DNA from: Gemmatimonadota bacterium
GTDB lineage: Bacteria > Gemmatimonadota > Gemmatimonadetes > Gemmatimonadales > GWC2-71-9
Direction of reading: 5' to 3'
Length of the DNA: 64,000 nucleotides
NCBI GenBank assembly: GCA_016209985.1
Contig: JACQVB010000022.1
Span: 1,664 to 65,663, forward strand
The notes below the pieces were generated by a model. The model did not search any database. It worked only from the letters and a program-made list of their open reading frames with translations, and was not told where the DNA came from. Below, in pieces: positions 16,496 to 28,549 of this stretch. Position 1 is the first letter of the stretch. The number at the start of each line of letters is the position of its first letter. Made by a program: the position numbers and the translations under genes.

Positions 16496-19336
16496 TCAAC
16501 GGCCGCCGCCACCGGATCGGTCAACCAACGCTTCAGCGCACGGCGATTCAGCGCCACCCATTCCTCCGTTCTCGGGATGTCGGCCGCCAGGCGACCCGCG
16601 CTGACGAGTGCGTCGCCTCGCCGAGGGGTCCACGCCGAAGAATGCCTCGCGTGGGTTGTCGCAGGCGCCGGCGATGATCGCCGCGATCAGTTGCCAGCGC
16701 TCGGCGGGGGCAAGGGTCGTGTCACCCACGAAGCGCAGTCCCGTCGGCGATACCGGATCGGACATCAGGAAACGATCCCGGCGCCAGGAATTCGCCATTC
16801 GGTCACGAAGTTCCCGGGCGGTGCTCGCGAGATCGCTCGCTTCCACGATGAGATTCGCGTCATCCGTCAGTCGCCCGATATGGTCGATGTCGGGGCTTGC
16901 GGACTCGATGATTTCGATGCCGACGAGGCTTTGACCGACGAGCGGGGTGCGCAAGAAGTACCTGCCGGCGGCCAGATTCTCGCGCAATCGCAGCAAGGCA
17001 GTCGCTTTGTCTCCCCGTGCCAGCGCCTGCGCGGCGGCGGCCTGGTTCCGAGTGGCGAGTCCCTGCGCGCCCGCCAGGTAGTTCGCCGAGCTGGGATGGT
17101 TCTGCGCCCGTGGTAAGACCCAGGGATTGGATATGCCGGGAAACCCCGAGCGATATTGCCAGAGGACGGGGGGCGGTGCTGCCGCGAATCGTCGCCACAA
17201 TCTCAGCTGTAAACCGTCATCCATCGCCTCGCCCACGCCGCTGGTGTCGACGTCCCAGGCGGCAGGAAGAGAGTCGTTCCGCGTCCAGACGACGGTCAGG
17301 AGTCGGGCGGCGTCGAGATCCGGCCGCGCCGCCAACGGCAGGTGCGAAGCGGCGGACAGCAGCGAGTCAACCGCCTGCCAGCCGCGGGGACGCAGGCTGT
17401 CGACCGTTCGTGCCACGATCCAGGCCGACGCGCCCTTTCTCTCGTTCGCGGCGATGACTACTTCGAGCAACATCCCCGCTGCCAGGAGGGCCAAAGTGAA
17501 AACTGTCGCGCAGACCGCGATGGTGGGGATGATCCAGAGCACCGGTCGCGGAACCAGCCGAGGCTTGGTGACGGCCCGGCGCCCGACCAAGTCGAGCCAG
17601 CCCGTCACGAGTTCACTCTTGACGGCCGGGAGAGACTTCGCCTCGAAGAGGGATTCGCCTCGCCGGCCACGGCGACGAACTCTTGCTTCCGGGCGCGCGC
17701 AGGCGAGGATCGCGATCATGCCGACCAGCGCCGGTACTACCAGGCTCAGGACTTCGACAGTTGACACGAACGTGGTGCTGCCTCCTCCCGGGCCGCCGAG
17801 CCACTGCGCTGCCCGAAACCACAACCACGGGGCGGCGAGTGCGAAGGAGACGGTGCCCAGCGCGAACGCGGCGCGCAGATGACGGAGCCGGAGCAATTGC
17901 TGGCGCTCCCCGTCGCTTACCAGCGCGTATACTCCGGTGCGGTTCAGCAAGGCGCCCGTATCGGGGTGGCTGTCCAGGGCCACGTCGAGCAGCACCGGCC
18001 ATGGATAGCCGGACCGTCGGGCCCAATGCAGCCGGCTCGCCAACCGCCAGGCACGAAATGCCACGATGACCACTAGGACCAGGGCCACATCCACGATCAC
18101 CATGACGATGATGGCCCAGACATATACGGTATCCGTGTCGTCGGTCCGTACCGGAAGGGTCGCGTCGATGGCCGCCTTGAAGCCCTTCCAGATACCGGAG
18201 CCTTCCGGCTGGTTCCAGCAGCACAGCATGCTGGTGGTAGGCTGAACCAGAAGGTGAACGAACAGCACTAGTCCGAGAGCGGCGAGGAGTCCCAACGTCC
18301 GGAGGAGCCGCGCACCCAGGCCACGGAGCCGCTCCAGCCCGGGCGGGGGCCATTCAATGATCGTCCCGCCCGCCGGCAGGAGTGCGCGGGCGACATCGGC
18401 GGCGCTGGGACGCTGGAGCGGGTCCTTGGCCAGGCAGCGGTTGACCAGGTCCGCCAATTGCGGGTCCAGATCACCCCGCAGCGAGTGAAGGTCAGGCGGC
18501 GCCTCCTTCATGTGCGCCGCGATCAGACCCATGGCGCTGGATTCGATGAAGGGAGGCCTTCCGGTGGCGAGCTCGAACGCCACCACACCCAGACTGTAGA
18601 CATCGCTCCGGTCGGTGACCGCATCGCCCGCGGCCTGCTCCGGACTCATGTACATCGGCGTTCCGATGGAGGTGCCGGTGGCGGTGAGCTTCTCCTCGCC
18701 ACGCACTTTACGCTTCTCGAGCACCGCACTGATCCCAAAGTCGAGCACCACGGCTCGACCACTCTCCTGATCGAGCATGATGTTGCCGGGCTTGATGTCA
18801 CGGTGGACCAGACCGTGAGCGTGCGCGGTCGCGAGCGCGGACGCCACCTCACCGACGATGCGCCGGACGCGCGGCTCGGGGAGAGCCTCGCCCTCGTGTA
18901 GCACACCCTGCAGGGTGGGACCTTCGACGAACTGCATCACCAGATAGGGAACGCCGGACGGTGCCAACTCGCCCACCTGGTAGACGCTCACGACGTGCGG
19001 ATGCGAGACCGCCGCGGCGGCTTCGGCTTCACGGGTGAACCGTGCCCGCGCGACCGGATCCTGCGCCAACGCATGCGTCAGCACCTTGATCGCCACCGAG
19101 CGCTTGAGGGCCGGGTCTCGCCCGAGATAGACCGACCCCATGCCGCCGGCGCCCAGGGGCCGCAGCACATGGATTCCGGGCGCCAGTGCGGTGCGGAGCT
19201 CGGCCAGTGTTCCGTCACCATCGGGTGGGGGGGCAGTGGGGTCCGCCGCTATCAGCGGCATCCCGCACTGGCGGCAGAAGGTGTCCGTCGGGTCGAGTGG
19301 CGACTCACAGGATGAGCAACGAAGCCCGTCGGTCAT
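16496..19336 (-). CDS. Ser/Thr protein kinase with N-terminal zinc ribbon, TM segments and a long uncharacterised C-terminal region
   Basis: CSSCES..FCRQCG, VAIKVL, HRDIKPGNIML, DFG, SPEQ. Several hydrophobic segments follow, then ~350 aa without recognisable motifs. Confidence 0.85.
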   Translation of the reverse strand: MTDGLRCSSCESPLDPTDTFCRQCGMPLIAADPTAPPPDGDGTLAELRTALAPGIHVLRPLGAGGMGSVYLGRDPALKRSVAIKVLTHALAQDPVARARFTREAEAAAAVSHPHVVSVYQVGELAPSGVPYLVMQFVEGPTLQGVLHEGEALPEPRVRRIVGEVASALATAHAHGLVHRDIKPGNIMLDQESGRAVVLDFGISAVLEKRKVRGEEKLTATGTSIGTPMYMSPEQAAGDAVTDRSDVYSLGVVAFELATGRPPFIESSAMGLIAAHMKEAPPDLHSLRGDLDPQLADLVNRCLAKDPLQRPSAADVARALLPAGGTIIEWPPPGLERLRGLGARLLRTLGLLAALGLVLFVHLLVQPTTSMLCCWNQPEGSGIWKGFKAAIDATLPVRTDDTDTVYVWAIIVMVIVDVALVLVVIVAFRAWRLASRLHWARRSGYPWPVLLDVALDSHPDTGALLNRTGVYALVSDGERQQLLRLRHLRAAFALGTVSFALAAPWLWFRAAQWLGGPGGGSTTFVSTVEVLSLVVPALVGMIAILACARPEARVRRRGRRGESLFEAKSLPAVKSELVTGWLDLVGRRAVTKPRLVPRPVLWIIPTIAVCATVFTLALLAAGMLLEVVIAANERKGASAWIVARTVDSLRPRGWQAVDSLLSAASHLPLAARPDLDAARLLTVVWTRNDSLPAAWDVDTSGVGEAMDDGLQLRLWRRFAAAPPPVLWQYRSGFPGISNPWVLPRAQNHPSSANYLAGAQGLATRNQAAAAQALARGDKATALLRLRENLAAGRYFLRTPLVGQSLVGIEIIESASPDIDHIGRLTDDANLIVEASDLASTARELRDRMANSWRRDRFLMSDPVSPTGLRFVGDTTLAPAERWQLIAAIIAGACDNPREAFFGVDPSARRRTRQRGSPGGRHPENGGMGGAESPCAEALVDRSGGGGR

Positions 19337-19492
19337 CGGTCATCCGAGTTGAGGACGTGACGTGGCGGTCAAGGGACCGCACTAACTTGCGTCGCAGCGG
19401 CAGAGCGGGGGAGTGCGCGGCCTAATCGTCCACCTCCCAGTCCTGATCCTCCTTGTCTTCCCTCCACCGGGCACGGAACGATCTGGTCGACC

Positions 19493-19684
19493 TCAGCCGT
19501 TTGAATAGGTGTTGCCCAACAGCATCTGCACGCCGGCCGCTTTCAGGTCGAACGGCGACAGGGCCTTTACCGTTCCCTGAGTGCCCACGGGCATGAAGGC
19601 GGGCGTCTCCACCACGCCGTGGGGGAGCGTGAGGTGGCCGGCGCGGGCGGCGCCGGACTTTGCATGGAGGGTGAATTCGAACAC
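19493..19684 (-). pseudogene. tgt: 5' remnant (~60 codons) of tRNA-guanine transglycosylase
   Basis: [42 protein letters not shown]...LLGNTY matches the Tgt N-terminus. The frame then diverges and stops, and no remainder of tgt is in the window. Confidence 0.8.
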
Positions 19685-19685
19685 G

Positions 19686-19756
19686 GCCTCACCCCTGTCC
19701 CCTCTCCCCTTCGCTCCGCTCAGGGCGGCGCCTTACGGGAGAGGGGAACCGAGGCC
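19686..19756. repeat. Imperfect hairpin (CCCCTCTCCC / GGGAGAGGGG)
   Basis: ggcctcacccctgtcccctctcccc ... gggagaggggaaccgaggcc, immediately upstream of the tgt remnant. Confidence 0.55.
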
Positions 19757-19904
19757 CATGGCTGGTTGTGCGGGCTGTGGCTGGAATCTTCAAGTGTCAA
19801 GTAATCGACATAGTGTCGCCGTAACTATAGAACCGGTACCATTGAAGACCCACCCCAGATTGGCGCGTGTTCACTGCCGCCGGCATCGTCGTAGAAAGCA
19901 CCCT

Positions 19905-19925
19905 CGGGGCGGGGCACCCGCCCCG
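19905..19925 (-). terminator. Candidate terminator hairpin downstream of the hipA-like gene
   Basis: cggggcggg-gca-cccgccccg gives a 9-bp GC stem. On the minus strand it is followed by a weak T-rich run (tgctttct). Confidence 0.35.
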
Positions 19926-19943
19926 TACGCCCGTCGGCGCACG

Positions 19944-20027
19944 GAGCAGGTGGTCGGTGGGACGGGGACCGAGGGGGTGCGTCATGGGCAAGAAAATGGG
20001 ATTTGGCGGGGGCGGCGTCCAGCGCCG
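19944..20027. repeat. Direct repeat copy A (~85 bp): second copy of the sigma-factor 5' region
   Basis: By-eye alignment to 22438-22520 gives roughly 85% identity. On the minus strand it encodes MTHPLGPRPTDHLL. Confidence 0.7.
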
Positions 20028-20044
20028 CCGATGCTTCAGCCCGC

Positions 20045-21955
20045 CTAGCTGCGGCGCTTTCCTTTGGGATGAAACATCGCGTCGATGTTTCCCTCAACCA
20101 TCCGAATCAGCTTCGTCTGTCGTTCTTTGGTGAGCCCTGAGGCCACAGCCACGTCGGCAATATTCGTTCGGATGCGATCGCCCAGGTCCTTCGCTCGATC
20201 CAGCGCTTCGGCGCGACTCCATCCAAACCGGCGAGCCAGGACAGCAAAATCCTCGGTACGCAGATTGTTCTGACGCCCATTCAGGGTGAGCGCAAATCCG
20301 TCGCCAGGAATTACGAGTCGAGTCGCGACAAGATCGTAGAGGGGCGCATAACGGGTGCCCGTTTGGACTGGGGGCCTTCCGAGACGGCCGGGTTGGATGC
20401 TACGAGCAACCGAGATGTTCTTGGCGTGCAGATCCCCGTTCCCAATCAGCCACGAGTACAGCACGTGGTCGAAATGCAACTTCAAGTCCGCTGGTGACAG
20501 TGCCATTCCGACGAGCGCCGTCAGTACTTGCTCGTGAGATGGATCGTATTTGTCCTCACGGCGAATTCCCAACACCGATGCGAGATCCTCAACAAGCAAC
20601 AACTCGTCCACATCAAGGCTCGTGGGCAGATCGAACCGTTCAACCAGAAGCGCCGGCGATTGGAGCAGGCTCCCTTCCTGAAACTGCACCCTCCTCACGG
20701 CCGGAACCGGTAGTGCAACGCGTCTCGCGAGTTCCATCATCGCCCACTCGTTTTCCACGAGCTGCGGGTATTCCCGCGAAGCGAACTTGAGAATGTGGGT
20801 AGTCGAGTGGTGTAGATCGCCGAGTCCAAGCCTCACGCCGGAGCTGAGCATGTCGAGATGCACCGGCAGCTTGGGCTGGATTCCGGAGAGCCGTGTCGCG
20901 CCCCGCCGGCGAAGCTCTAACCACAGTTCGGTTGTATCGGGGTCTTTCCCGATCGTCTCGGAAACGTCCAAGACGGCGGCCGAGTCAGTCGTCAATCGCT
21001 CGAGGGGATCCTCGATCGTATCAAGCACGAGCGTGGAAGCATCGAAGTCCTGCGGCCTGAGGGTAAGGTTACTGAGATATTTCTGGGTGGTCTTAAGAAT
21101 CGCGTAAGAATCTTCGCGCGAAATCTTGTGAGTCGCTCGAAGCTGCGCTTCAGCCCAACCCTCAGGCAACAGGTTATCGAGGAACGGCGGCAGCTCGCGC
21201 CCTTCGTATGCAGGGATCCGGCTTCGTGGCAAACCGCTCAGCTCGATGTTCCACGCTGGATCATAGGTGAAACGGAATTCCCCGTGCACCAGAGCCTCCA
21301 AGCGCCCGACTCTCCAGTGGTAGAAGAAGAGATCGAGACTTTCGCCTCGAGGCAGCGGTGTAGTTCCCGCCCGCGCCAGGGATTCTTGCACACGGACATA
21401 TCGCTCATAGGCGTTCGCCAGCTTGTTGCGGGCTGCAAACGCCGACGCGCGTTCCCAGTCAGCGCTCGGCAGGTTTCCGATGAGTGTACGGACCGCCTCT
21501 TCCGGCAACCCTCGCTCGGGTTGCCGCGCATCTCGAGCAAGCACCTCGAACACCGTTTGCAGGGGAGAACTAACCTGGACGCTGGCAGGCGTGCCCTCGG
21601 CGCTAATGCGCGGAGCCACCAGAGTCCGCAATCGAAGCGTGACCGTTTCCGGATGGGGCAGAGCGCGTAAGCGCTTGATGGTCAGCCCGGGAAGTTTTAA
21701 GGGAGTTCGCTTCCCATGACCAGATATGAAGACTACGCCCTGCGTTGGTTGAAGAGTCGCGGCAGTGCTGTGCGACACGTACCAATCCGGGTATGACGCG
21801 CCGAGAATGGCAAGAAAATGTTCACCCACGATGCTTTCTAGAGACCGGTCGAATTCGTCGGTGTAAATGCCGTGGGCTACCCGCCTGATCGCCTTGCGAT
21901 CGGCTCCGGTGTTGAGTGCTTCGGTGTCGGAGCGTGTTTGTGGGATGTAGAGCAT
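20045..21955 (-). CDS. HipA-family Ser/Thr kinase (toxin-like) with ~210-aa N-terminal extension
   Basis: RLSGIQPKLP, GNGDLHAKNISV and PLYDLV are HipA hallmarks in the C-terminal ~420 aa. At 636 aa it is well above the ~440 aa of canonical HipA. No adjacent hipB. Confidence 0.8.
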   Translation of the reverse strand: MLYIPQTRSDTEALNTGADRKAIRRVAHGIYTDEFDRSLESIVGEHFLAILGASYPDWYVSHSTAATLQPTQGVVFISGHGKRTPLKLPGLTIKRLRALPHPETVTLRLRTLVAPRISAEGTPASVQVSSPLQTVFEVLARDARQPERGLPEEAVRTLIGNLPSADWERASAFAARNKLANAYERYVRVQESLARAGTTPLPRGESLDLFFYHWRVGRLEALVHGEFRFTYDPAWNIELSGLPRSRIPAYEGRELPPFLDNLLPEGWAEAQLRATHKISREDSYAILKTTQKYLSNLTLRPQDFDASTLVLDTIEDPLERLTTDSAAVLDVSETIGKDPDTTELWLELRRRGATRLSGIQPKLPVHLDMLSSGVRLGLGDLHHSTTHILKFASREYPQLVENEWAMMELARRVALPVPAVRRVQFQEGSLLQSPALLVERFDLPTSLDVDELLLVEDLASVLGIRREDKYDPSHEQVLTALVGMALSPADLKLHFDHVLYSWLIGNGDLHAKNISVARSIQPGRLGRPPVQTGTRYAPLYDLVATRLVIPGDGFALTLNGRQNNLRTEDFAVLARRFGWSRAEALDRAKDLGDRIRTNIADVAVASGLTKERQTKLIRMVEGNIDAMFHPKGKRRS

Positions 21956-21969
21956 GAAAGTGCTACTTT

Positions 21970-22059
21970 AGTCAATAAGTTATCGTACATATTAACCATA
22001 GTAGCATATCCGTCAAGGCCTCAATGCTAGTTGGGTCAACAAGTACACAGACTTATTGA
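21970..22059. promoter_or_regulatory. AT-rich leader with three GTCAAYAAGT motifs (candidate operator) upstream of the hipA-like gene
   Basis: gtcaataagt at 21970-21979, gtcaacaagt at 22034-22043, and inverted acttattgac at 22050-22059. The latter two form a 10-6-10 inverted repeat. Confidence 0.4.
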
Positions 22060-22080
22060 CCAAAATCGCACTTTACCTCT

Positions 22081-22480
22081 CTATGGTCTCGAGTGCGGTG
22101 TCACCGGGATCGGGAACCTGGAGTCCGGCGTGCTTCGCACCAGCCTGAACCGTTCGGTGTCCATCGTGGAAGATCCCTCGATCCCCAGCATCGTGATCTT
22201 CTTCTTTTCGAACCGGGTGAGCGCCACGTTCCTGGCGATTTTCGCGAGCCACGCGCCGAAGGAGAACCGGGGATCGTACTTGACAAGAGCGCGGTGGGCG
22301 CGGCGGAAGGTTTCCTGCGCCGCGGAGTCGGCGACATCCCACTGACCGACGATGCGCATCACCAGCTCGATCTGTTCGTGGTAGCGGTCGTAGAGCTTGC
22401 GAAACGCGAGCTCATCGTCCTGCAGCGCCAGTTTGACGAGCTGCTGGTCGGTCGGACGCGGACCAAGGGGGGTGCGTCAC
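22081..22480 (-). pseudogene. ECF sigma-70 family gene, frameshifted near the start and lacking region 4
   Basis: ..TDQQLVKLALQDDELAFRKLYDRYHEQI...AQETFRRAHRALVKYDPRFSFGAWLAKIARN is sigma region 2. The GTG at 22480 is out of frame because of a G6 run (22467-22472), where repeat copy A has G5. The ORF ends at the AT-rich junction with no region 4. Confidence 0.65.
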
Positions 22481-22520
22481 GGGCAGAAAACGGGATGTGG
22501 CGGGGCCCGCGTCCAGCACA
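22438..22520. repeat. Direct repeat copy B (~85 bp), the native 5' end of the sigma-factor gene
   Basis: Aligns with 19944-20027. Confidence 0.7.
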
Positions 22521-22598
22521 GCACCCCCAATTCGCTCGCGTTCGTGATGCCGATGTATCGCCTCGAGGTAGGCGAAGAGCTTTCCCTGGGAATACCTG

Positions 22599-23738
22599 CT
22601 AATCATTCTCCTCTGGCCAGGACGCCGGCAGGCCAAGCACTTCGCCTGGACTTCTTCCAGCCGCGACCCTCAGGTGCCCATCAACCACCCTACTGAAGTC
22701 GAAGGGTAACACTCCATCAGGCAGCTCTTTCTTTGCCCAGGGATTGAGGAATACCGCTATCCTGCTCCGGCTGACGCTCCAGGGTTGGACCGAGGTGACG
22801 AGAACTGCGCTTATGCGGGTGTTTATCGGGCCAGTACTACCCATGAAGAAGCCATCGCGCGCGCGGCTCGGGCGCCCCTCTCTGGTGTCAACGTCAATAA
22901 CAACTTGCTCAGACCCGAACAGCGCCCCGATCACGTCATCACGGTCAGCCCCCCATTTTGTCTGAGTGTTGATGGCCAAGACGACAGGAACCTCGGCAGG
23001 ACCGAACTTCTTTGCCTTCTCCGCAAGACGGTCGCGGATGGACTCCTGGTCGCGAACCAAGCCTCCTGCTACTGGGTAGATGCCGATGGAGCGGACGCCC
23101 GGCTTCCCCCGCGCAGCATTCTTGGGAATGGGCCGAATGACGAGCCGGACCCTTTGGTCTTCCAAGACCCACTTGGGCAGGGTCTCGAGGTCACATTGCT
23201 GAAGTTCGGCGAGGCTCTCGTAGTCCGCCATCTCTATCTGGCTTGTGACGAACTGAGTAATCGCCCGGATGGACGGCTGCTGTGGACCCTTGATCTCGAA
23301 TTCGACTACTTCGAGGAAGTAGTCCGGTGAGGGGACCTGATTGATCGCATCCAAGATGGCGCCGACCATTGCCCTCCTGCCACGGTCCGCGTGCGACGCT
23401 CCACCCACGACTGACGCCTCGACTAGGAACTCGCTCTCGCCGCAACAGCCGAAATCGGGGCGCCCGCCCGCACGTTCAGGCTCAACTTCTGGAGCAAGTC
23501 TCAGGACATGGAATAGTTCGTGGAGGTAGAGCTCGAAAAAGGCTGATGAGAAATCATCGGCCACCATTCTCCGCAACAGCGCCGACTGTTTCGATGCGGG
23601 GTAGCGGTCGAACCAGCTCTGGAGCTCACGCCTGATCGCTTCGCAGCCGGGCTTGGCGCAACGGTCAAGGAATGCGTACGTCGATTCGGTGTGTCTGCTG
23701 GGGCTTGGGTCTGTCCTTGGAACGGCAGAGAAGAGCAT
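22599..23738 (-). CDS. Hypothetical protein (380 aa), last gene of the fic-hsdM-hsdS operon
   Basis: ATG at 23738 lies 13 nt after the hsdS stop. No Walker motif. Contains RPDF-x10-LVEAS, weakly reminiscent of a PD-(D/E)xK core. No family recognised. Confidence 0.6.
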   Translation of the reverse strand: MLFSAVPRTDPSPSRHTESTYAFLDRCAKPGCEAIRRELQSWFDRYPASKQSALLRRMVADDFSSAFFELYLHELFHVLRLAPEVEPERAGGRPDFGCCGESEFLVEASVVGGASHADRGRRAMVGAILDAINQVPSPDYFLEVVEFEIKGPQQPSIRAITQFVTSQIEMADYESLAELQQCDLETLPKWVLEDQRVRLVIRPIPKNAARGKPGVRSIGIYPVAGGLVRDQESIRDRLAEKAKKFGPAEVPVVLAINTQTKWGADRDDVIGALFGSEQVVIDVDTREGRPSRARDGFFMGSTGPINTRISAVLVTSVQPWSVSRSRIAVFLNPWAKKELPDGVLPFDFSRVVDGHLRVAAGRSPGEVLGLPASWPEEND

Positions 23739-23751
23739 AAGCACGAGAGAA

Positions 23752-24885
23752 TCAGACCCCAAACGCCCGCTGCGCCAGCGAGTCGAAGAGCTGATCAGCG
23801 GACTCCTCAGCGCCCCTGAGCTCGGAGCGCGTTTTCTCGCACGCTCGCACAATGTCTGAAAATCGCTTCTGGAGTCGGAGCGGGGGAACTGGTATCCGAA
23901 CTTCTCTGGCACTCCCGATATTGAAATGAGTCTGCACAGCACCGGTGGAGCCAGCAATGGAGTCTGCGTCCCCTAGGCGAGTGTTAAGAACCTCGCAAAG
24001 GTACTGCGGTTCGATTCGAGTGCCGCACGTCATCACGATTAGGTCTGCACAGTTTGCTTCCTTCAATGATTCCGGAATCACTGCAGTGACGCCCGGCGCG
24101 CCCGTTCTAACCGACACCACGTCATTGGGCAGTAATCGAGACTTGGAAATGCTTGCGTGGAACTCTGGCGAGACAAACATCAACTCGTCGAGTTGAATGC
24201 GCCCCCGTCTAACGTTCAATGACCGAAGCATTGACACACCTGTAGACTGATACTTATCGGTGAGAGGCCCTACAAATCCGACCGTTACTCTTGAGCAAAG
24301 GTTCCCCAGTAGGTCGGTTCCCCATTCCCTTTCATTCTTCACCGGATCCCCAAACATCTCCAAGAACTCCGAGCGCAAGAAATCATCCAGCAACCCCAGG
24401 CTCTCCCGCCGCTTCCGCCGCACCGCATCCGCCTTGCCCAATACCGCCGCGATCCGCTGCTGCTCGGCGAGGGGCGGAAGGGCGAGTGGCAAAGACTCCA
24501 CGGCCTCTCGCGTCACCTGCTTGAATGTCGATCCCCGCGCGCGACCTTCAAGAGTCGACCTGACTGAGGCAAGCCAGTGCCACAAGTAACCCTTGTCCAG
24601 ACGGGCAGTATGCACCCTCAATGCAGCCACTCCACGCCCCAGACAATACCGACGATCAGACCAGTTTCGCTCACCGACCGTCGCGCGAACGCACAGGAGG
24701 ATGTCGCCAACCTCGGACATCCTGCTCGGTTGCGTTGTAAAGCGCTTGGGCTGCGGCTCCAAGGTTCCAAAATCACCGGCGCCGGCAAGGAGCGGGAAAC
24801 CGTCGCCCGAAGAGTTGTAAGACTCACCTGGGGGTGCTTGGCCCATCACGACGTCGCAAACGGCCCCGAGCGTCGCCACGTTCAC
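23752..24885 (-). CDS. hsdS: Type I restriction-modification specificity subunit
   Basis: Two target-recognition halves, each followed by a conserved helix (LPPLAEQQRIAAVLGKAD..., PVPPLRLQKRFSDIV...). Overlaps the hsdM stop. Confidence 0.9.
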   Translation of the reverse strand: MNVATLGAVCDVVMGQAPPGESYNSSGDGFPLLAGAGDFGTLEPQPKRFTTQPSRMSEVGDILLCVRATVGERNWSDRRYCLGRGVAALRVHTARLDKGYLWHWLASVRSTLEGRARGSTFKQVTREAVESLPLALPPLAEQQRIAAVLGKADAVRRKRRESLGLLDDFLRSEFLEMFGDPVKNEREWGTDLLGNLCSRVTVGFVGPLTDKYQSTGVSMLRSLNVRRGRIQLDELMFVSPEFHASISKSRLLPNDVVSVRTGAPGVTAVIPESLKEANCADLIVMTCGTRIEPQYLCEVLNTRLGDADSIAGSTGAVQTHFNIGSAREVRIPVPPLRLQKRFSDIVRACEKTRSELRGAEESADQLFDSLAQRAFGV

Positions 24886-26435
24886 CGCAGCAACTCCTCC
24901 AGAGTGTCCAAGTCCCCCCTTATCTGCCCTTCTGTTTCTCTGAGTCTCTTGAGGATCTCGCTAGGTGGTTCGTGCTTGGATTCCGCGTAGGCCGTCTCTT
25001 TGTACCGATTGATCGCCAGGTCGTATTTGTTCTCCCGAATCTCCTCCACCGGCACAAAAAAGGCCTTCTCTGTCCGGTCCGTATCCCCCTTTGGATCCCT
25101 CGCCTTCCACCTCGCAATCACATCCGGAATATCATTCTCGGCCACCTTCTCCCGCTTGTCGTCCAGCGAGTAGCCGTCGGCCTGCATGTCGTAGTACCAG
25201 ACGCGCTCAGTCTTGCCGCCTTTGACGAAGATCAGCGCCGCGGTGCTCACGCCGGCGTAGGGCTTGAACACGCCCGCCGGCATCTTCACGATGCCCTGAA
25301 GCTCGCACTCCTCGATCAGCATCTTCCGCAGGTCCCGACGCGCATTGCTCGAACCGAACAGCACCCCGTCCGGCACGATTACGCCGGCCCGTCCGCCGAG
25401 GCGCAACAGATTGATCATCCGGTTCACAAACAGCAGCTCCGTCTTGGTCGTCTTGAGCCGCAAGTCCTCGTTGAGGTCACCCTTGTCGATGCTGCCTTTG
25501 AAGGGCGGATTCGCGAGGACGACGTCGTAGCGGTCCTTTTCGGTGTAGCTCTTGGAGAGCGTATCCTTGTAGCCAAGCTGCGGGTGGTCGATGCCATGGA
25601 GCAGGAGGTTCATCAGGCCGATCCGCACCATCGTGGTGTCGAAGTCGTAACCGAAAAACGTCTGCTCCTTGAGCGCCTTCCATTGCCGCGGGTCGCCGAG
25701 GTTGTCTCCCACCAGACCCCGTTCGATCCCGTCCTCGCCCATGAAGCGATGCCCCTTGCTGGTGTGCTGGGTGAGGATGTGCTGAAAGGCTCCGAGCAGA
25801 AATCCCCCGGTGCCGCAGGCCGGATCGCAGATCCCCTCTCCCAGCCTGGGGTCAACCAGCGAGACGATCATCTGAATGATGTGCCTCGGCGTGCGGAACT
25901 GGCCGTTCTTCCCGGCCGAAGCGATTTCGGAGAGCAGGTGTTCGTAGAGATCACCCTGGACATCCTGGAACCCCTGCCCCGCCTGCTGCTCCCGCTCGAT
26001 CTCGGCGTAGATCTCGTCAATGATTCCGACCGCCTCGACCAGCAGCGACGCCTTGGGGATGATGAAAACGGCATCCTGCATGTACTGCGTGAATATCTGG
26101 CCGCCGTTCTTGAGGGTCTTGATGAACGGAAAGACGTTGTCGCGGACGTGGTCCAGCATTTCCTCGGCGGGCAGGTGGCGAAACTTGCCCCAGCGCAGCT
26201 CCTCGCGCGAACGCCTGGCACCTTTCCTGGTCTCGTATTTCCCGGCGAAGAGGGACTTGAACTCTCTGCCCGTGAACTCGGCGTCCCCTCGTTCCTTCTC
26301 ATCGAGCGCGTCCAGCCGGCGCATGAAGAGGAGATAGCTGATCTGCTCGATGGCGGTGAGCGGATTGGCGATGCCACCGGACCAGAACTTGTCCCATAGC
26401 GCATCGGTTCTTGACCGCAGGATTCCGCTCAGCAT
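24882..26435 (-). CDS. hsdM: Type I restriction-modification N6-adenine DNA methyltransferase subunit
   Basis: N-terminal HsdM_N-like region, SAM motif DPACGTGGFL, catalytic motif NPPF. Confidence 0.9.
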   Translation of the reverse strand: MLSGILRSRTDALWDKFWSGGIANPLTAIEQISYLLFMRRLDALDEKERGDAEFTGREFKSLFAGKYETRKGARRSREELRWGKFRHLPAEEMLDHVRDNVFPFIKTLKNGGQIFTQYMQDAVFIIPKASLLVEAVGIIDEIYAEIEREQQAGQGFQDVQGDLYEHLLSEIASAGKNGQFRTPRHIIQMIVSLVDPRLGEGICDPACGTGGFLLGAFQHILTQHTSKGHRFMGEDGIERGLVGDNLGDPRQWKALKEQTFFGYDFDTTMVRIGLMNLLLHGIDHPQLGYKDTLSKSYTEKDRYDVVLANPPFKGSIDKGDLNEDLRLKTTKTELLFVNRMINLLRLGGRAGVIVPDGVLFGSSNARRDLRKMLIEECELQGIVKMPAGVFKPYAGVSTAALIFVKGGKTERVWYYDMQADGYSLDDKREKVAENDIPDVIARWKARDPKGDTDRTEKAFFVPVEEIRENKYDLAINRYKETAYAESKHEPPSEILKRLRETEGQIRGDLDTLEELLR

Positions 26436-26445
26436 CCGATCTCCT

Positions 26446-27495
26446 TCAAGCCTTTACCGGTACCCATTTGGCTCCTGGACCTCGCCCGAGCTGCTGAAGC
26501 TGGCCTGCGTTCCTCAATCCGCGGAGGACGCGGCGCACCATTTCCCGGCTCACGCCGGGACATTCCGCCTCGATGTCAGCGATGCCAAACGCGCGGGTGC
26601 GACGGGCCACCGCTTGCTCCACCAGATCGGTTTTGGCCCCGCGGCCCGCTCGAATCGTGCCGACTCTGGCTTCGAACTCCTTGTACGCGGCGAGCACCAC
26701 CCCCCAGAAATACGTGATCCAGGGAATCACATCGTGTCGGCCCTGATGCCACCCAACCGAGCTGGCTTCTAGGGTCTCGTAGTAGCTCTCCTTCGACTCC
26801 TCGAAGATGCGCTCGAGACTGATGTAGCGCCCCACCTCGTACTGAAAGTGGTAGAGCAACAGGAGGGTCAGCAGCCGAGCCATCCGGCCGTTCCCATCAC
26901 TGAAGGGGTGAATGCACAGGAAGTCGAGCACGGCGAGCGGGACCAGGACCAGCGGCTCACGGTTCCGGTCCAGCGCCCGGGCGTAGCGCTCCACCAATTG
27001 CTCCATCGCGCCCGGAGTGGAGACCGGTGCTACCGGCGTGAAACGAATCCGGTGCAACGATCCATCCGGCGTTCGCTCCACAATCTCGTTTTGCGTGCTC
27101 TTCCACCGCCCGCCGGGAGTGGGGAGGTAGCGATAGAGGAGTTGATGGAGTTGCAAAACCACGTTGATACTGAAATGCATGTCGCCATGGGCTTCATGGA
27201 TCAGGACAAGGGCATCGCGATACCCCGCGATCTCCTGCTCCGAACGATTGGCGGCCGCCGTGGGCTTCTTGACCACCGCTTCCACCCGATCCCGTGGCGC
27301 CGTGACACCCTCCAGCCGATTGGAGGACTCGGCGGATTCAACGATCGCGCGCTCGAGGAGTCCGGACAGCACGTCCGGGGTTTGCTTCCGGAAAAGCTCC
27401 TGCTTACCCCGGAACTCCCGCAACGCGCCGAGCGTGGAGGCGTGGTCGGCGGTTAACCGGAGACCATCGAGATATGAATCCGCCAGCGAGTGCAT
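26446..27495 (-). CDS. fic: Fic/DOC family protein with intrinsic inhibitory motif and C-terminal winged-helix-like tail
   Basis: Fic motif HPFSDGNGRMAR. N-terminal SNRLEG fits the (S/T)xxxE(G/N) inhibitory helix. The C-terminal ..REMVRRVLRGLRNAGQLQQLGRGPGAKW looks HTH-like. Confidence 0.9.
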   Translation of the reverse strand: MHSLADSYLDGLRLTADHASTLGALREFRGKQELFRKQTPDVLSGLLERAIVESAESSNRLEGVTAPRDRVEAVVKKPTAAANRSEQEIAGYRDALVLIHEAHGDMHFSINVVLQLHQLLYRYLPTPGGRWKSTQNEIVERTPDGSLHRIRFTPVAPVSTPGAMEQLVERYARALDRNREPLVLVPLAVLDFLCIHPFSDGNGRMARLLTLLLLYHFQYEVGRYISLERIFEESKESYYETLEASSVGWHQGRHDVIPWITYFWGVVLAAYKEFEARVGTIRAGRGAKTDLVEQAVARRTRAFGIADIEAECPGVSREMVRRVLRGLRNAGQLQQLGRGPGAKWVPVKA

Positions 27496-27530
27496 CAGTA
27501 CGACTCAGAACAAAAAGGGGTAATGAAGTA

Positions 27531-27584
27531 TAATAGTGGTAATAACATCGCATTATTACCACTATTCGTCAAACTATTACCACT
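27531..27584. promoter_or_regulatory. Candidate operator/promoter upstream of fic: 14-bp perfect inverted repeat plus a third half-site
   Basis: aatagtggtaataa-N8-ttattaccactatt, then actattaccact 7 nt further. The segment is AT-rich and lies 36-90 nt upstream of the fic ATG. Confidence 0.45.
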
Positions 27585-27586
27585 TC

Positions 27587-28197
27587 TCACGCCACCAGCC
27601 GGCCGGTGAATCTCAGGATGTCTTCGATGTCGGAGGCCGAGAAGAGGCCTCGTGCCCCCTTGGGATGAAGCTGGGTGAACGGCGGGTCAACCAGGTTCTT
27701 CCGGTTTACCTCGCCTCTCTGGAGCAGGAACGTTCGCAGGGTTTGGAGAAAGCGGAGCTGGAGCGAGGAATAGTTCGAGTGCTCAGCCATGAAGCCCTCG
27801 AACTCGCGCGTCACGAAGGTTGACCACCGTTCCAGCGGCTGCACGCCCCGGACGTGCCTGATGAGCTGGACGAAGCTCGCCTGGCGAACGTCGTAGACCT
27901 TCGGGCAACCAGGTTCACACCCAACGGCAATTCGGAGACTTGTTCGACGATGGAAAGGCGGAGCGCTTCGACGGCGTCGCGATTCGCGGCCAGCAGTGCC
28001 GTTCCCAGCTCCACGATGTCGGTTTCGAAGCGTAGGGCCTTGAAATCCGCGTCCGACTTGGCCCGCATGATCGGCGCGATGGTCTGGCGGAGAAGTGCCA
28101 GATCACGGCGCCTAAGGCGGGACCAGAAACCATCCTCGCGGGCGACCGCCAAGTCGCCCTGTCGTTCCAGGAAGCAGCACGAGGAAAGGCCCGACAC
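27587..28197 (-). pseudogene. hsdR: C-terminal remnant of the type I restriction subunit HsdR (EcoEI_R_C-like), also frameshifted
   Basis: Two ORF pieces in different frames. ..LRQTIAPIMRAKSDADFKALRFETDIVELG.. and ..SSLQLRFLQTLRTFLLQRGEVNRKNLVDPPFTQLHPKGARGLF.. match the HsdR C-terminal domain pattern. The helicase and nuclease parts are absent. Confidence 0.7.
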
Positions 28198-28549
28198 TGC
28201 AGAGGAAAATGTGAAATTCGAGCCAGTACTTGAGCTTGCCTGCCCCCCGCAGGAGGTGCAGTCGCTTGCGTACGCTATAGAGGAAAACGCCGGCGATGAT
28301 CAGCGAGGTTCCGATGATGCCGTAGCGGAGACCGAACGTGCCGGCCGGCCGGAACCGGGCGTACATGGGCGAAAACGGCCGCTGATCCAGCGGAAGCAGG
28401 TAATACTCGATGCCCAAGCCGAGACCGAAGCCTGCGAGCGCGAGGCCCAGCGAGATGAGCACGATTCGAAAGATCCGTCCGCTGGCCCTGGGGGAAGGCG
28501 GCTCAACCCCGCTGGGCAACTCGATTGGTGAAGCGGCCGGTGAGGGCAC
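28112..28549 (-). pseudogene. Membrane protein gene, apparently 3'-truncated where it abuts the hsdR remnant
   Basis: Three predicted TM helices end in ..KYWLEFHIFLCSVGPFLVLL (about 28172). The frame then runs into hsdR-derived sequence and stops. Confidence 0.45.

Follow-up and report, generated by a model that had tools for sequence, protein, structure and literature searches.

The founding members of the persistence toxins are the HipA kinases. HipB binds four operators in the hipBA promoter, and in higher-order complexes of HipA, HipB and DNA the active sites of the kinase are blocked. AbiE systems, of type IV, are now proposed to be type VII. The diversity of Hip systems has been catalogued by gene organisation, with 10 organisations described (Gerdes et al., 2021, PMC8262856), and in both HipA and HipT a serine beside the Gly-rich loop is autophosphorylated (Gerdes et al., 2021). 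HipH (YjjJ) is monocistronic, with a separate N-terminal HTH of ~100 aa and the rest colinear with HipT, no HipA-type N-subdomain-1 being described, and its fused HTH has been proposed as an antitoxin in cis (PMC8262856). HipL, also monocistronic, is a Hip kinase whose C-terminal part carries HipS-like and HIRAN domains (PMC8262856). Among the AbiE antitoxins, AbiEi regulates its own expression through inverted repeats; repression requires its C-terminal domain (CTD), which by itself suffices for antitoxicity (PMC3985639). The CTD binds to the active site of the toxin and triggers an inactivating autophosphorylation (bioRxiv 10.64898/2026.01.19.700257). Loss of the DxD motif has been reported for several AbiEi antitoxins (PMC13621843), and Rv2827c binds four inverted repeats, from -1 to -131.

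The locus analysed here lies within a window of 64 kb (the whole stretch of DNA examined, 64,000 nucleotides of a Gemmatimonadota contig) and comprises one gene of 636 aa on the minus strand (20045..21955, stop codon included). The reading frame reported in the initial annotation is intact, and an in-frame TAA 18 nt ahead of the ATG means that no upstream extension of it is possible. A protein from a Gemmatimonadetes MAG is 100% identical (P0001) and bears the sole annotation ‘HipA family toxin’, the label under which hundreds of copies of the fusion stand in the databases. More than 120 homologues of ~630 aa align across 98–99% of their length, and the fusion was located at 38 genome loci, almost all of them matching from end to end. 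The long frame is therefore not an assembly or frameshift artefact joining two genes, a possibility that had been raised at the outset. The loci come from Gemmatimonadota and from Melainabacteria/Obscuribacterales, with gene contexts that are unrelated to one another, and one MAG has two divergent paralogues. The analysis confirms that a complete HipA kinase and a cut-down AbiEi-type module are encoded together by one real and conserved gene, with no separate HipB.

The C-terminal part (aa 207–636) is a HipA of full length. Its N-subdomain-1 (Couple_hipA, HipS-like; aa 207–290, 21086..21337, minus strand) was recognised by PF13657 (4e-12) and TIGR03071 (7.5e-9), and its Foldseek matches include HipS chains as well as 7CZO, the N-domain of HipA. 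The core kinase domain (HipA_C, aa 355–596, 20168..20893, minus strand) matches PF07804 at 1.1e-37 (130 bits, cut-off 30.5) and, among PDB sequences, HipT(Lp) at 8.6e-14 and E. coli HipA at 6e-10. Foldseek placed the kinase with 2WIU, 4PU5 and 3DNT, the HipA structures of E. coli and S. oneidensis, at E ~1e-18 and TM(target) 0.68–0.73. Since Couple_hipA begins at aa 207 and Pfam leaves aa 1–206 uncovered, the extension first put at ~210 aa measures ~206 aa ahead of the full-length HipA. These residues are separately and confidently folded, which excludes a common N-terminal variant of HipA, the objection foreseen in the initial annotation.

The HipA hallmarks previously noted in this half were located precisely. 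The Gly-rich (P-) loop RLSGIQPKLP occupies aa 355–364 (20864..20893, minus strand), the catalytic loop GNGDLHAKN aa 505–513 (20417..20443, minus strand), with Asp508 as the catalytic base, and the YD pair aa 540–541, within the Mg-binding motif LYDLV (aa 539–543, 20327..20341, minus strand; Asp541). Across 71 homologous sequences G358, Q360 and K362 of the P-loop, K390, G507, D508, H510, K512 and N513 of the catalytic loop, and Y540, D541 and L542 of the Mg motif are invariant, and S357 is conserved in at least 90%. All catalytic motifs are intact, in keeping with membership of the HipA family of Ser/Thr kinases. Ser357, at position -1 relative to the Gly of the Gly-rich loop, is a candidate autophosphorylation site; in HipT this is the position of Ser59.

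The 206 residues ahead of the kinase had been tentatively likened to AbiEi-type antitoxins on the strength of three motifs, RKAIRRVAHGIYTDEF (aa 20–35), WYVSHSTAATLQ (aa 58–69) and SSPLQTVFEVLA (aa 129–140), all of which are present. Searches of N-terminal segments with PADLOC models bear out this resemblance: AbiEi model PDLC02225 matched 17 of 22 segments (best 1.3e-5) and PDLC02228 matched 10 of 22 (best 4.9e-6), and AbiEi models made up 21 of the 22 families matched. The supposed colinearity with the AbiEi consensus was also seen, aa 11–68 aligning with model positions 32–81 of 198 and aa 125–186 with positions 145–203 of 207. Pfam AbiEi_4 matches distant relatives of the module; the Pfam AbiEi models gave no match to the window protein itself, and Pfam covers nothing in aa 1–206. 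In the search for structural neighbours that had been recommended, Foldseek of the N-terminal model returned NTase folds weakly (best E = 0.05, TM ~0.4), including the NTase-like 5KQJ, a fold neighbour common to the module and to AbiEi itself, but no AbiEi entry, 6Y8Q and 1ZEL being unlisted. Module profiles A1 and A5 found no sequence match to solved AbiEi chains among PDB sequences, with spurious weak matches only (dihydrodiol dehydrogenase and NC2 alpha). Taken together, the profile matches, fold neighbour and apparently matching topology support a remote homology of the module to AbiEi, with the winged helix-turn-helix (wHTH) cut to one helix and a wing.

According to the AF2 secondary structure and the PADLOC alignment, aa 1–35 (21851..21955, minus strand) form a truncated winged-helix remnant made up of a strand (aa 2–3), a helix (aa 8–19) and a beta-hairpin wing (aa 24–32) ending in GIYT. 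The helix is putatively the recognition helix H3 in the AF2 model; its residues vary across the family, and those of the wing are conserved. The AbiEi wHTH helices H1 and H2 are absent, some 20–30 N-terminal AbiEi residues being missing because the alignment starts at model position ~32, and DNA binding by the remnant is for that reason only putative. The AbiEi-CTD-like, NTase-like domain follows (aa 36–196, 21368..21850, minus strand) and appears to share the AbiEi topology, with a single helix, four main beta-strands in a row and a bundle of helices; the best Foldseek match of the N-terminal model reaches a TM of only ~0.4. A flexible linker (aa 197–206, 21338..21367, minus strand; pLDDT <50 at aa 197–202) joins it to the kinase. 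The AF2 model of the full-length fusion has a pLDDT of 90.9 and, with its disordered linker, a pTM of 0.70, so that docking of module and kinase is not confidently predicted. No Pfam match to an HTH, and none of HTH_3 type, was found in aa 1–211, and a fused HipB of the Xre/HTH_3 type is excluded, no Pfam or PHROGs model matching. The net positive charge of the module is modest.

Residues of the CTD are conserved to the same degree as those of the kinase. No clear equivalent of the acidic loop on which AbiEi antitoxicity depends (D85/E86/I87) can be recognised in the module; a rough extrapolation of the PADLOC alignment puts the corresponding loop at aa 68–73, LQPTQG. The NTase-like fold, the truncated wHTH and the position of the gene in a defence island would fit a sensor or substrate adaptor that binds a nucleotide, tRNA or phage protein, the leader repeats being bound by another factor or having another role, and accessory nucleic-acid-binding domains do exist on Hip kinases, such as HIRAN in HipL (PMC8262856). 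We consider such a function quite unlikely. The module has neither DxD nor a conserved acidic pair, which excludes an active NTase, and no catalytic or ligand signature is conserved.

The same module was also found on a second type of toxin. It gave 585 profile matches, of which domain typing covered 94, and in 28 of 47 distant relatives it is fused to Fic. These AbiEi-like-Fic fusions (~490 aa) constitute an unnamed sister family in which the full module is aligned (profile E down to ~1e-14) with the same wHTH truncation, and their leaders also carry repeated motifs, there direct and not inverted. They differ in the effector, a Fic domain related to SoFic/PDC-S04. Identity of this family with the PADLOC candidate PDC-S24 is not supported, the matches being weak and confined to the Fic region. 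The presence of one module on two toxin types suggests that its role is not limited to DNA binding and is directed at the toxin as well.

Upstream of the gene, the AT-rich leader/promoter region of 125 nt that had been noted for a repeated motif (21956..22080, minus strand) has a GC content of 0.38 and contains GTCAAYAAGT three times. These are the only copies in the 64-kb window, where 0.08 would be expected. The sole promoter-like site in 19300–22700, a sigma-70-like TTGACG-N16-TAATAT (21989..22016, minus strand), lies between the operator-like copies. Copy 1 (22051..22060, GTCAATAAGT on the minus strand) is inverted with respect to copy 2 (22035..22044, GTCAACAAGT on the plus strand), upstream of the -35 box, and to copy 3 (21971..21980, GTCAATAAGT on the plus strand), downstream of the -10 box and 16–25 nt upstream of the ATG. 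Copy 1 falls within a long imperfect inverted repeat (21948–22007 / 22024–22083), and no Rfam match to a structured RNA was obtained in the leader or flanks.

Leaders of the homologous loci are all likewise AT-rich, and in the typical leader a 9–12-bp motif peculiar to the locus is repeated three or four times, in a conserved + - + - geometry around a sigma-70-like promoter. Four copies in that order were found at 13 of 37 loci, a count reached by 0–1 of 200 shuffles, with three copies at 12 loci and, by a strict criterion, two only at 12, so that three or four copies bracket the promoter in about two-thirds of the loci surveyed, that of the window included. Four-copy arrays occurred in 10 of 29 leaders compared with none of 28–29 control windows, which were placed downstream, within the gene or far upstream. 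The geometry is common to at least six unrelated motif sequences. Self-repression is suggested by the conserved placing of motif copies around the promoter, and the array points to autoregulation through predicted operators. The binder could be another host factor. The encoded protein is the simplest candidate, because the repeats are locus-specific, no neighbour is conserved and, in one pair of homologues (P0076 and P0082), a common motif accompanies a near-identical helix and wing (94% identity in aa 1–35 versus 77–79% elsewhere); this too argues against the sensor or adaptor function considered above. Covariation of helix and operator involves very few independent lineages, and in the MAG with two paralogues a clear motif array is present at one locus only (L038).

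No other signal in the analysis is as strong as the operator arrays, and they would also fit a module that is an autorepressor only, like the HTH of HipH/YjjJ, without any antitoxin role, the kinase being limited by low expression and by trans- or autophosphorylation of Ser357. That autophosphorylation of HipA is a known self-limiting mechanism (PMC8262856), that the packing between the domains is not confidently predicted and that the acidic antitoxicity loop is not evident all agree with this alternative, which we regard as possible though not probable. However, it is the CTD, the antitoxicity domain of AbiEi, that has been kept whole and the canonical DNA-binding wHTH that has been trimmed; the CTD is as conserved as the kinase, and the recurrence of the module on Fic is harder to reconcile with repression alone.

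No Xre/HipB ORF is found on either side of the gene in the window, as the initial annotation had stated, and the pairing of homologues with hipB that would have spoken against it was not seen: none of 63 co-oriented flanking ORFs at 30 surveyed loci matches an HTH family, and no HipB is among the called neighbours in six homologous contexts. The conserved fusion is monocistronic. No neighbour gene is conserved across the six contexts, and DUF1814/AbiEii was not matched in the 10 window neighbours scanned nor listed in the six other contexts. The contexts of the homologues are variable and often rich in TA or defence genes, and the window gene itself sits in an island of low GC that also contains SoFic and type I R-M genes. 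Pseudogene debris, namely tgt and ECF sigma fragments, surrounds it. A flanking direct repeat of ~80 nt is the duplicated 5' end of an ECF sigma gene; with two copies only, it is not a dispersed REP/MITE. The 64-kb window contains no tRNA genes that would point to a tRNA-linked integration.

Such debris, together with one seemingly disrupted homologue (L025), might indicate a decaying relic, or else a kinase that is not toxic, serves housekeeping or signalling and has no part in TA or defence. This is very unlikely: the ORF is intact, the catalytic residues are invariant and both halves are conserved in two phyla. Moreover, the sporadic distribution and the changing, TA/defence-rich neighbourhoods are typical of an accessory toxin module and not of a housekeeping gene.

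The reading we prefer, and to which we give a little better than an even chance, is that the gene encodes an autoregulated, self-contained HipA-family toxin or defence kinase in which the cis-fused AbiEi-type module does the jobs of HipB; its function as a cis antitoxin or defence kinase is inferred. Protein monomers would bind the leader repeats through the helix/wing and a surface of the CTD, in the way that AbiEi and Rv2827c bind their two or four inverted repeats, and would thereby repress their own transcription and keep the dose of kinase low. The AbiEi-like CTD would also restrain the kinase in cis, whether by occluding it, by favouring an inactive, Ser357-autophosphorylated state, or by assembly of the kinases on the operator array with their active sites blocked, as in HipBA-operator complexes. 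A trigger, for which phage infection, loss of DNA binding and cleavage of the linker are candidates, would lift the restraint, and the freed kinase would phosphorylate a component of translation, most likely an aminoacyl-tRNA synthetase as for HipA and HipT. The outcome would be growth arrest, in the form of abortive infection or persistence.

On this preferred reading, the role of HipB could be replaced by an unrelated antitoxin fold in cis. The AbiEi module is not restricted to toxins of the DUF1814 NTase type but occurs on HipA and Fic effectors as well. A bolder proposal, which we think rather unlikely, is that the module is a portable, general controller of nucleotide-using toxins that holds HipA and Fic in a self-modified ‘off’ state in cis and represses the promoter as well; if true, the fusions would be single-gene, type VII-like TA or abortive-infection systems, and would add an eleventh organisation to the Hip catalogue as well as a new class of TA made of one polypeptide. 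The gene offers a compact test case for the control of toxins by an AbiEi CTD and for induced autophosphorylation as a possible general means of neutralisation, and the family a natural set of putative pairs of operator and recognition helix, useful for tracing how DNA-binding specificity evolves. TA and defence annotation pipelines that seek toxin-antitoxin gene pairs would misclassify the fused genes as orphan toxins.

The AbiEi-like/HipA architecture matches none of the 10 organisations in Gerdes et al. (2021), in agreement with the original impression that it fits no described Hip architecture, and the supplements of that catalogue have no Gemmatimonadota, Melainabacteria or Chloroflexi entries. 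The architecture is new relative to this catalogue and the searchable literature; HipA kinases and AbiEi antitoxins themselves are already known. With the type II HipBA systems of E. coli K-12 and S. oneidensis the fusion shares a full-length HipA (N-subdomain-1 and core kinase, with the same four motifs) and a promoter with multiple operator repeats, predicted in the fusion. It differs in having no hipB gene (30 loci) and a regulator in cis that is of AbiEi type and not an Xre-HTH, and its kinase is distant from E. coli HipA (phmmer 6e-10, ~20% identity). Like HipH/YjjJ, it is a single-gene Hip kinase with an N-terminal putative DNA-binding or cis-antitoxin domain, but that domain is a 196-aa AbiEi-like module without an HTH_3-type Pfam match, and Couple_hipA is kept. 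HipL and the fusion are both single-polypeptide Hip kinases with their own putative regulatory and DNA-binding domains, whereas in HipL the accessory domains are C-terminal and of HIRAN type and N-terminal subdomain-1 is absent. To the AbiEi, Rv2827c and MenA antitoxins of AbiE systems the module is related by remote sequence homology, by a CTD that appears NTase-like in fold and has lost the catalytic DxD, by a promoter with two to four repeats over ~130 nt and by its pairing with a nucleotide-using toxin, putative in the fusion. In contrast to AbiEi, it lacks H1/H2 and a recognisable D85/E86/I87 loop, and it is fused to its effector and not encoded by a separate gene, that effector being a HipA kinase (or Fic) in place of a DUF1814 NTase.

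The fused kinase gene (20045-21955, minus strand) is an uninterrupted 636-codon open reading frame that cannot reach further 5′, since an in-frame TAA lies 18 nt before its ATG. In the C-terminal 430 residues Pfam identifies Couple_hipA, the N-terminal HipA subdomain (aa 207-290, 4e-12), followed by HipA_C, the core kinase (aa 355-596, 1e-37), and NCBIfam TIGR03071 agrees with the HipA assignment; aa 1-206 matched no family in Pfam, NCBIfam or PHROGs. The initial annotation had described a solo HipA-family protein of 636 aa with an N-terminal extension, which is borne out by the reading frame and by HipA domains beginning at aa 207; the peptide strings it quoted were likewise all found at the relative positions given. 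A database entry 100% identical to the protein, from a Gemmatimonadetes MAG, carries the sole label 'type II toxin-antitoxin system HipA family toxin'.

Among PDB sequences, phmmer matched Legionella HipT (8.6e-14) and E. coli HipA (6e-10), the latter along almost its entire length, with the kinase half around 20% identical to characterised HipA-type kinases. The full-length AF2 model (pLDDT 90.9) resembles the E. coli and S. oneidensis HipA structures (E ~1e-18, target-normalised TM 0.68-0.73), as well as HipS chains and the isolated HipA N-domain. Across 71 homologues, residues G358, Q360, K362, K390, D508, H510, K512, N513, Y540 and D541 do not vary, and Ser357, which adjoins the Gly-rich loop, shows at least 90% conservation. 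The protein is therefore predicted to be a catalytically competent, full-length HipA-type kinase.

In a homology search that gave 490 relatives, the top 120 align across 98-99% of the query and nearly all measure ~630 aa. Mean identity is 44% over aa 1-206 versus 52% over the kinase half, so the extension is under constraint comparable to that on the kinase. Furthermore, a scan of 185,579 species, each represented by one genome, located the fused gene at 38 loci, nearly all full-length matches and all in Gemmatimonadota (Gemmatimonadaceae, Gemmatimonadales, Longimicrobiales) or Melainabacteria/Obscuribacterales. Because the fusion recurs at full length in homologues and genome loci, an assembly or frameshift artefact is ruled out and the long reading frame is a true fusion. 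One Obscuribacterales copy (L025:3001-4897) has an in-frame stop ~210 nt into the gene; its tblastn match nevertheless covers residues 2-627, and the stop reflects either decay to a pseudogene or a sequencing error.

The N-terminal module (aa 1-206) was folded by AF2 at pLDDT 93.6 from a 22-sequence alignment. A short strand, a helix (aa 8-19) and a beta-hairpin (aa 24-32) are followed by a helix (aa 39-54), a short strand (aa 58-60), a helix (aa 62-67), four main strands (aa 74-79, 91-97, 104-114 and 122-129) and a helical bundle (aa 131-198), a predicted order resembling the published topology of the AbiEi C-terminal domain (CTD), namely one helix, a four-strand row and a helix bundle. Two PADLOC AbiEi HMMs matched 17/22 (best 1.3e-5) and 10/22 (4.9e-6) family members, AbiEi models accounting for 21/22 of the families matched, and both matches in the window protein are colinear with the ~200-residue AbiEi. 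A module profile found 585 relatives among 1.84 billion cluster representatives; in two domain-typed sets of 47 (94 in all), 4/47 and 9/47 matched Pfam AbiEi_4 (best 5.3e-5). The module lacks the DxD signature, which is also missing from several AbiEi antitoxins (PMC13621843). However, the full winged helix of published AbiEi comprises three helices and then three strands, whereas the module, in the AF2 model, retains just the putative recognition helix and wing, a truncation shared by its Fic-fused relatives. Moreover, two module profiles (A1 and A5) did not match the solved AbiEi sequences, and 6Y8Q and 1ZEL were absent from the Foldseek results for the module model. The AbiEi resemblance proposed in the initial annotation is thus supported by PADLOC matches, by AbiEi_4 in relatives and by a similar predicted CTD topology, but not by a complete winged helix or by matches to solved AbiEi sequences and structures. 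For these reasons we call the module AbiEi-like: it is a remote, N-terminally trimmed relative and no canonical AbiEi.

A larger family of ~490-aa proteins (P0139-P0268; loci L045-L047) shares the first ~100-200 residues of the module and has the HPFxDGNGR motif in the C-terminal half; 28/47 of those typed matched Pfam Fic and 27/47 PADLOC SoFic and PDC-S04. Two Fic-fused genes examined are solitary, each with three repeated leader motifs (GTGGAAAAAATTTG at L045, TAGTGAC at L046). Given its recurrence on HipA and Fic effectors, the module is thus a portable unit joined to no fewer than two types of growth-arresting enzyme, each of which uses nucleotide triphosphates. One relative has an APS-kinase/P-loop domain in place of Fic. 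An incidental parallel is the variable region of H. pylori ICEHptfs3, in which AbiEi/AbiEii, Fic genes and the kinase CtkA alternate (PMC12443045); the CtkA structure matches the HipA fold of the window protein.

The fused gene sits at the edge of a low-GC island (~20,000-28,500; GC 0.57-0.64 versus roughly 0.61-0.71 in the flanks) with pseudogene remnants on both sides, the setting of a typical defence island. Upstream lies a truncated ECF sigma-70 gene (22081-22440, minus strand; region 2 Pfam 1.4e-9), probably a pseudogene, which lacks region 4 and any usable upstream start codon and whose end is the exact beginning of the kinase gene's AT-rich leader. Beyond it are a 452-aa unknown ORF (22599-23957; weak PD-T7-5 match, 5e-5) overlapping hsdS by ~200 nt, the type I restriction-modification specificity subunit HsdS (23752-24885) and methylase HsdM (24882-26435), with no HsdR noticed adjoining them in the window, and a SoFic-like Fic protein (26446-27495; PADLOC SoFic 9.4e-37). 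Downstream is a remnant of a queuine tRNA-ribosyltransferase gene (tgt; 19493-19684, minus strand; TGT Pfam 8.6e-18) that encodes 63 aa of the N-terminus, the rest of the gene not adjoining; it lies between the island and the gene for a 946-aa Hanks-type Ser/Thr kinase directly outside (16496-19336, minus strand). This kinase combines a zinc ribbon at its N-terminus with a long C-terminal region that, by eye, looks hydrophobic or membrane-associated. A Pkinase gene also lies ~3 kb from the fused hipA at L001, probably a coincidence. An ~80-nt direct repeat (19950-20035 and 22448-22530, ~88% identical, two copies only in the window) flanks the 2.5-kb segment holding the sigma fragment, leader and fused gene; read on the minus strand, each copy encodes 'PLGPRPTD...', the 5′ end of an ECF sigma gene, which suggests duplication or recombination at the insertion site.

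As had been claimed, hipB is absent, both among the window neighbours and at the homologous loci surveyed. Six other contexts with pre-computed Pfam showed no common neighbour and no co-oriented HTH gene adjoining the kinase. Across 30 loci we surveyed all co-oriented ORFs that encode 50 aa or more and lie no further than 200 nt from an end of the gene; none of these 63 matched HTH/Xre families, the matches being SDR, transposase, PIN, DinB, ParE and the sigma fragment. The fused gene is monocistronic.

Of the new results, leader architecture is the most informative. The 125-nt leader has a GC of 0.38 and carries GTCAAYAAGT three times, confirming the AT-rich, repeat-bearing region noted originally; no other copies occur in 64 kb (0.08 expected). 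The most gene-distal copy is inverted relative to the others, and two copies lie upstream of the sole sigma-70-like promoter in the region (TTGACG-N16-TAATAT, 22016 to 21989), with one between the -10 box and the ATG. Homologous loci share this plan with different words: ATGTCGCCA (L001, L015, L024), AATGTAGCG (L002, L018, L020-22, L025), CTGTAATGA (L027-30, L041), TAGCGGTTA (L033), TTTTAGACT (L035) and TAAGATATT (L038). Four copies occur at 13/37 loci and three at another 12/37, the usual four-copy order being + - + - at about -143/-115, -96/-73, -62/-50 and -15/-10; only 0-1 of 200 shuffles reached four. In a positional control, four-copy arrays were present in 10/29 leaders and in 0/28 windows just downstream, 0/29 inside the gene and 0/29 windows 400 nt further upstream. 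In six leaders (L002, L006, L018, L020-22; -145 to -10), motif pairs resemble a tandem duplication of an ~81-nt unit of motif, -10-like box and inverted motif (compare AATGTAGCGCTTTTGCCAGATATACT with AATGTAGCGCTTTCACCATGTATAAT), which could represent two tandem promoters, each bracketed by putative operators.

Two homologues with a common motif (P0076 and P0082) are 94% identical over aa 1-35 (helix and wing) versus 77-79% elsewhere, and proteins with differing helices have differing motifs. In the 71-sequence alignment helix positions are among the module's most variable; the wing is conserved. No neighbour of the gene is conserved. Most simply, each of these proteins would recognise the leader of its own gene, and this would imply autorepression. 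Rv2827c binds four inverted repeats from -1 to -131, a layout similar to these arrays. The hipBA promoter, with four operators, is similar too. One MAG (GL140_1_metabinner_9) holds two paralogues, L038 with a clear four-copy array and L032 with none clear; insulated, non-cross-reacting autoregulation of the pair is possible.

What the analysis shows is the domain make-up, the intactness of the catalytic residues, the conservation and solitary state of the gene, and the arrays of operator-like motifs. The overall explanation, to which we give slightly better than even chances, is an autoregulated HipA kinase restrained in cis by its AbiEi-like module and released by a trigger. Most confidently, the module would bind the repeats and repress its own gene; with less confidence, its CTD would restrain the kinase in cis; and, least confidently, a trigger would free the kinase to phosphorylate a translation factor and arrest growth. 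Restraint in cis is drawn from three precedents: the AbiEi CTD alone suffices for antitoxicity (PMC3985639), it binds over the active site of the toxin and brings about an autophosphorylation that inactivates it (bioRxiv 10.64898/2026.01.19.700257), and autophosphorylation beside the Gly-rich loop, where Ser357 is conserved here, turns HipA-family kinases off (PMC8262856). Docking of module on kinase is not confidently predicted, given a full-length pTM of 0.70 and a disordered linker (aa 197-202), and the module has no recognisable counterpart of the acidic AbiEi loop; both points favour the main rival, a module acting as autorepressor only, to which we assign a fairly low probability. The interpretation in the initial annotation, a cis-fused regulatory module on a HipA kinase, is supported as far as computation goes.

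Gerdes, Baerentsen and Brodersen (mBio 2021; PMC8262856) defined 10 Hip families by gene organisation, from a dataset that is 70% Proteobacteria. None has an AbiEi-like N-terminal module before a complete HipA, in keeping with the earlier proposal that the architecture lies outside described Hip systems. AbiEi fusions to HipA or Fic are undescribed in the literature searched by full text, whose incomplete coverage makes an earlier mention possible. Monocistronic HipH has an HTH of ~100 aa before a HipT-colinear kinase, whereas the window protein has an AbiEi-like module before a complete HipA; monocistronic HipL carries C-terminal HipS-like and HIRAN domains, in contrast to the N-terminal module here. 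The window protein is thus a HipA-family toxin kinase with a cis-regulatory architecture new to the literature searched.
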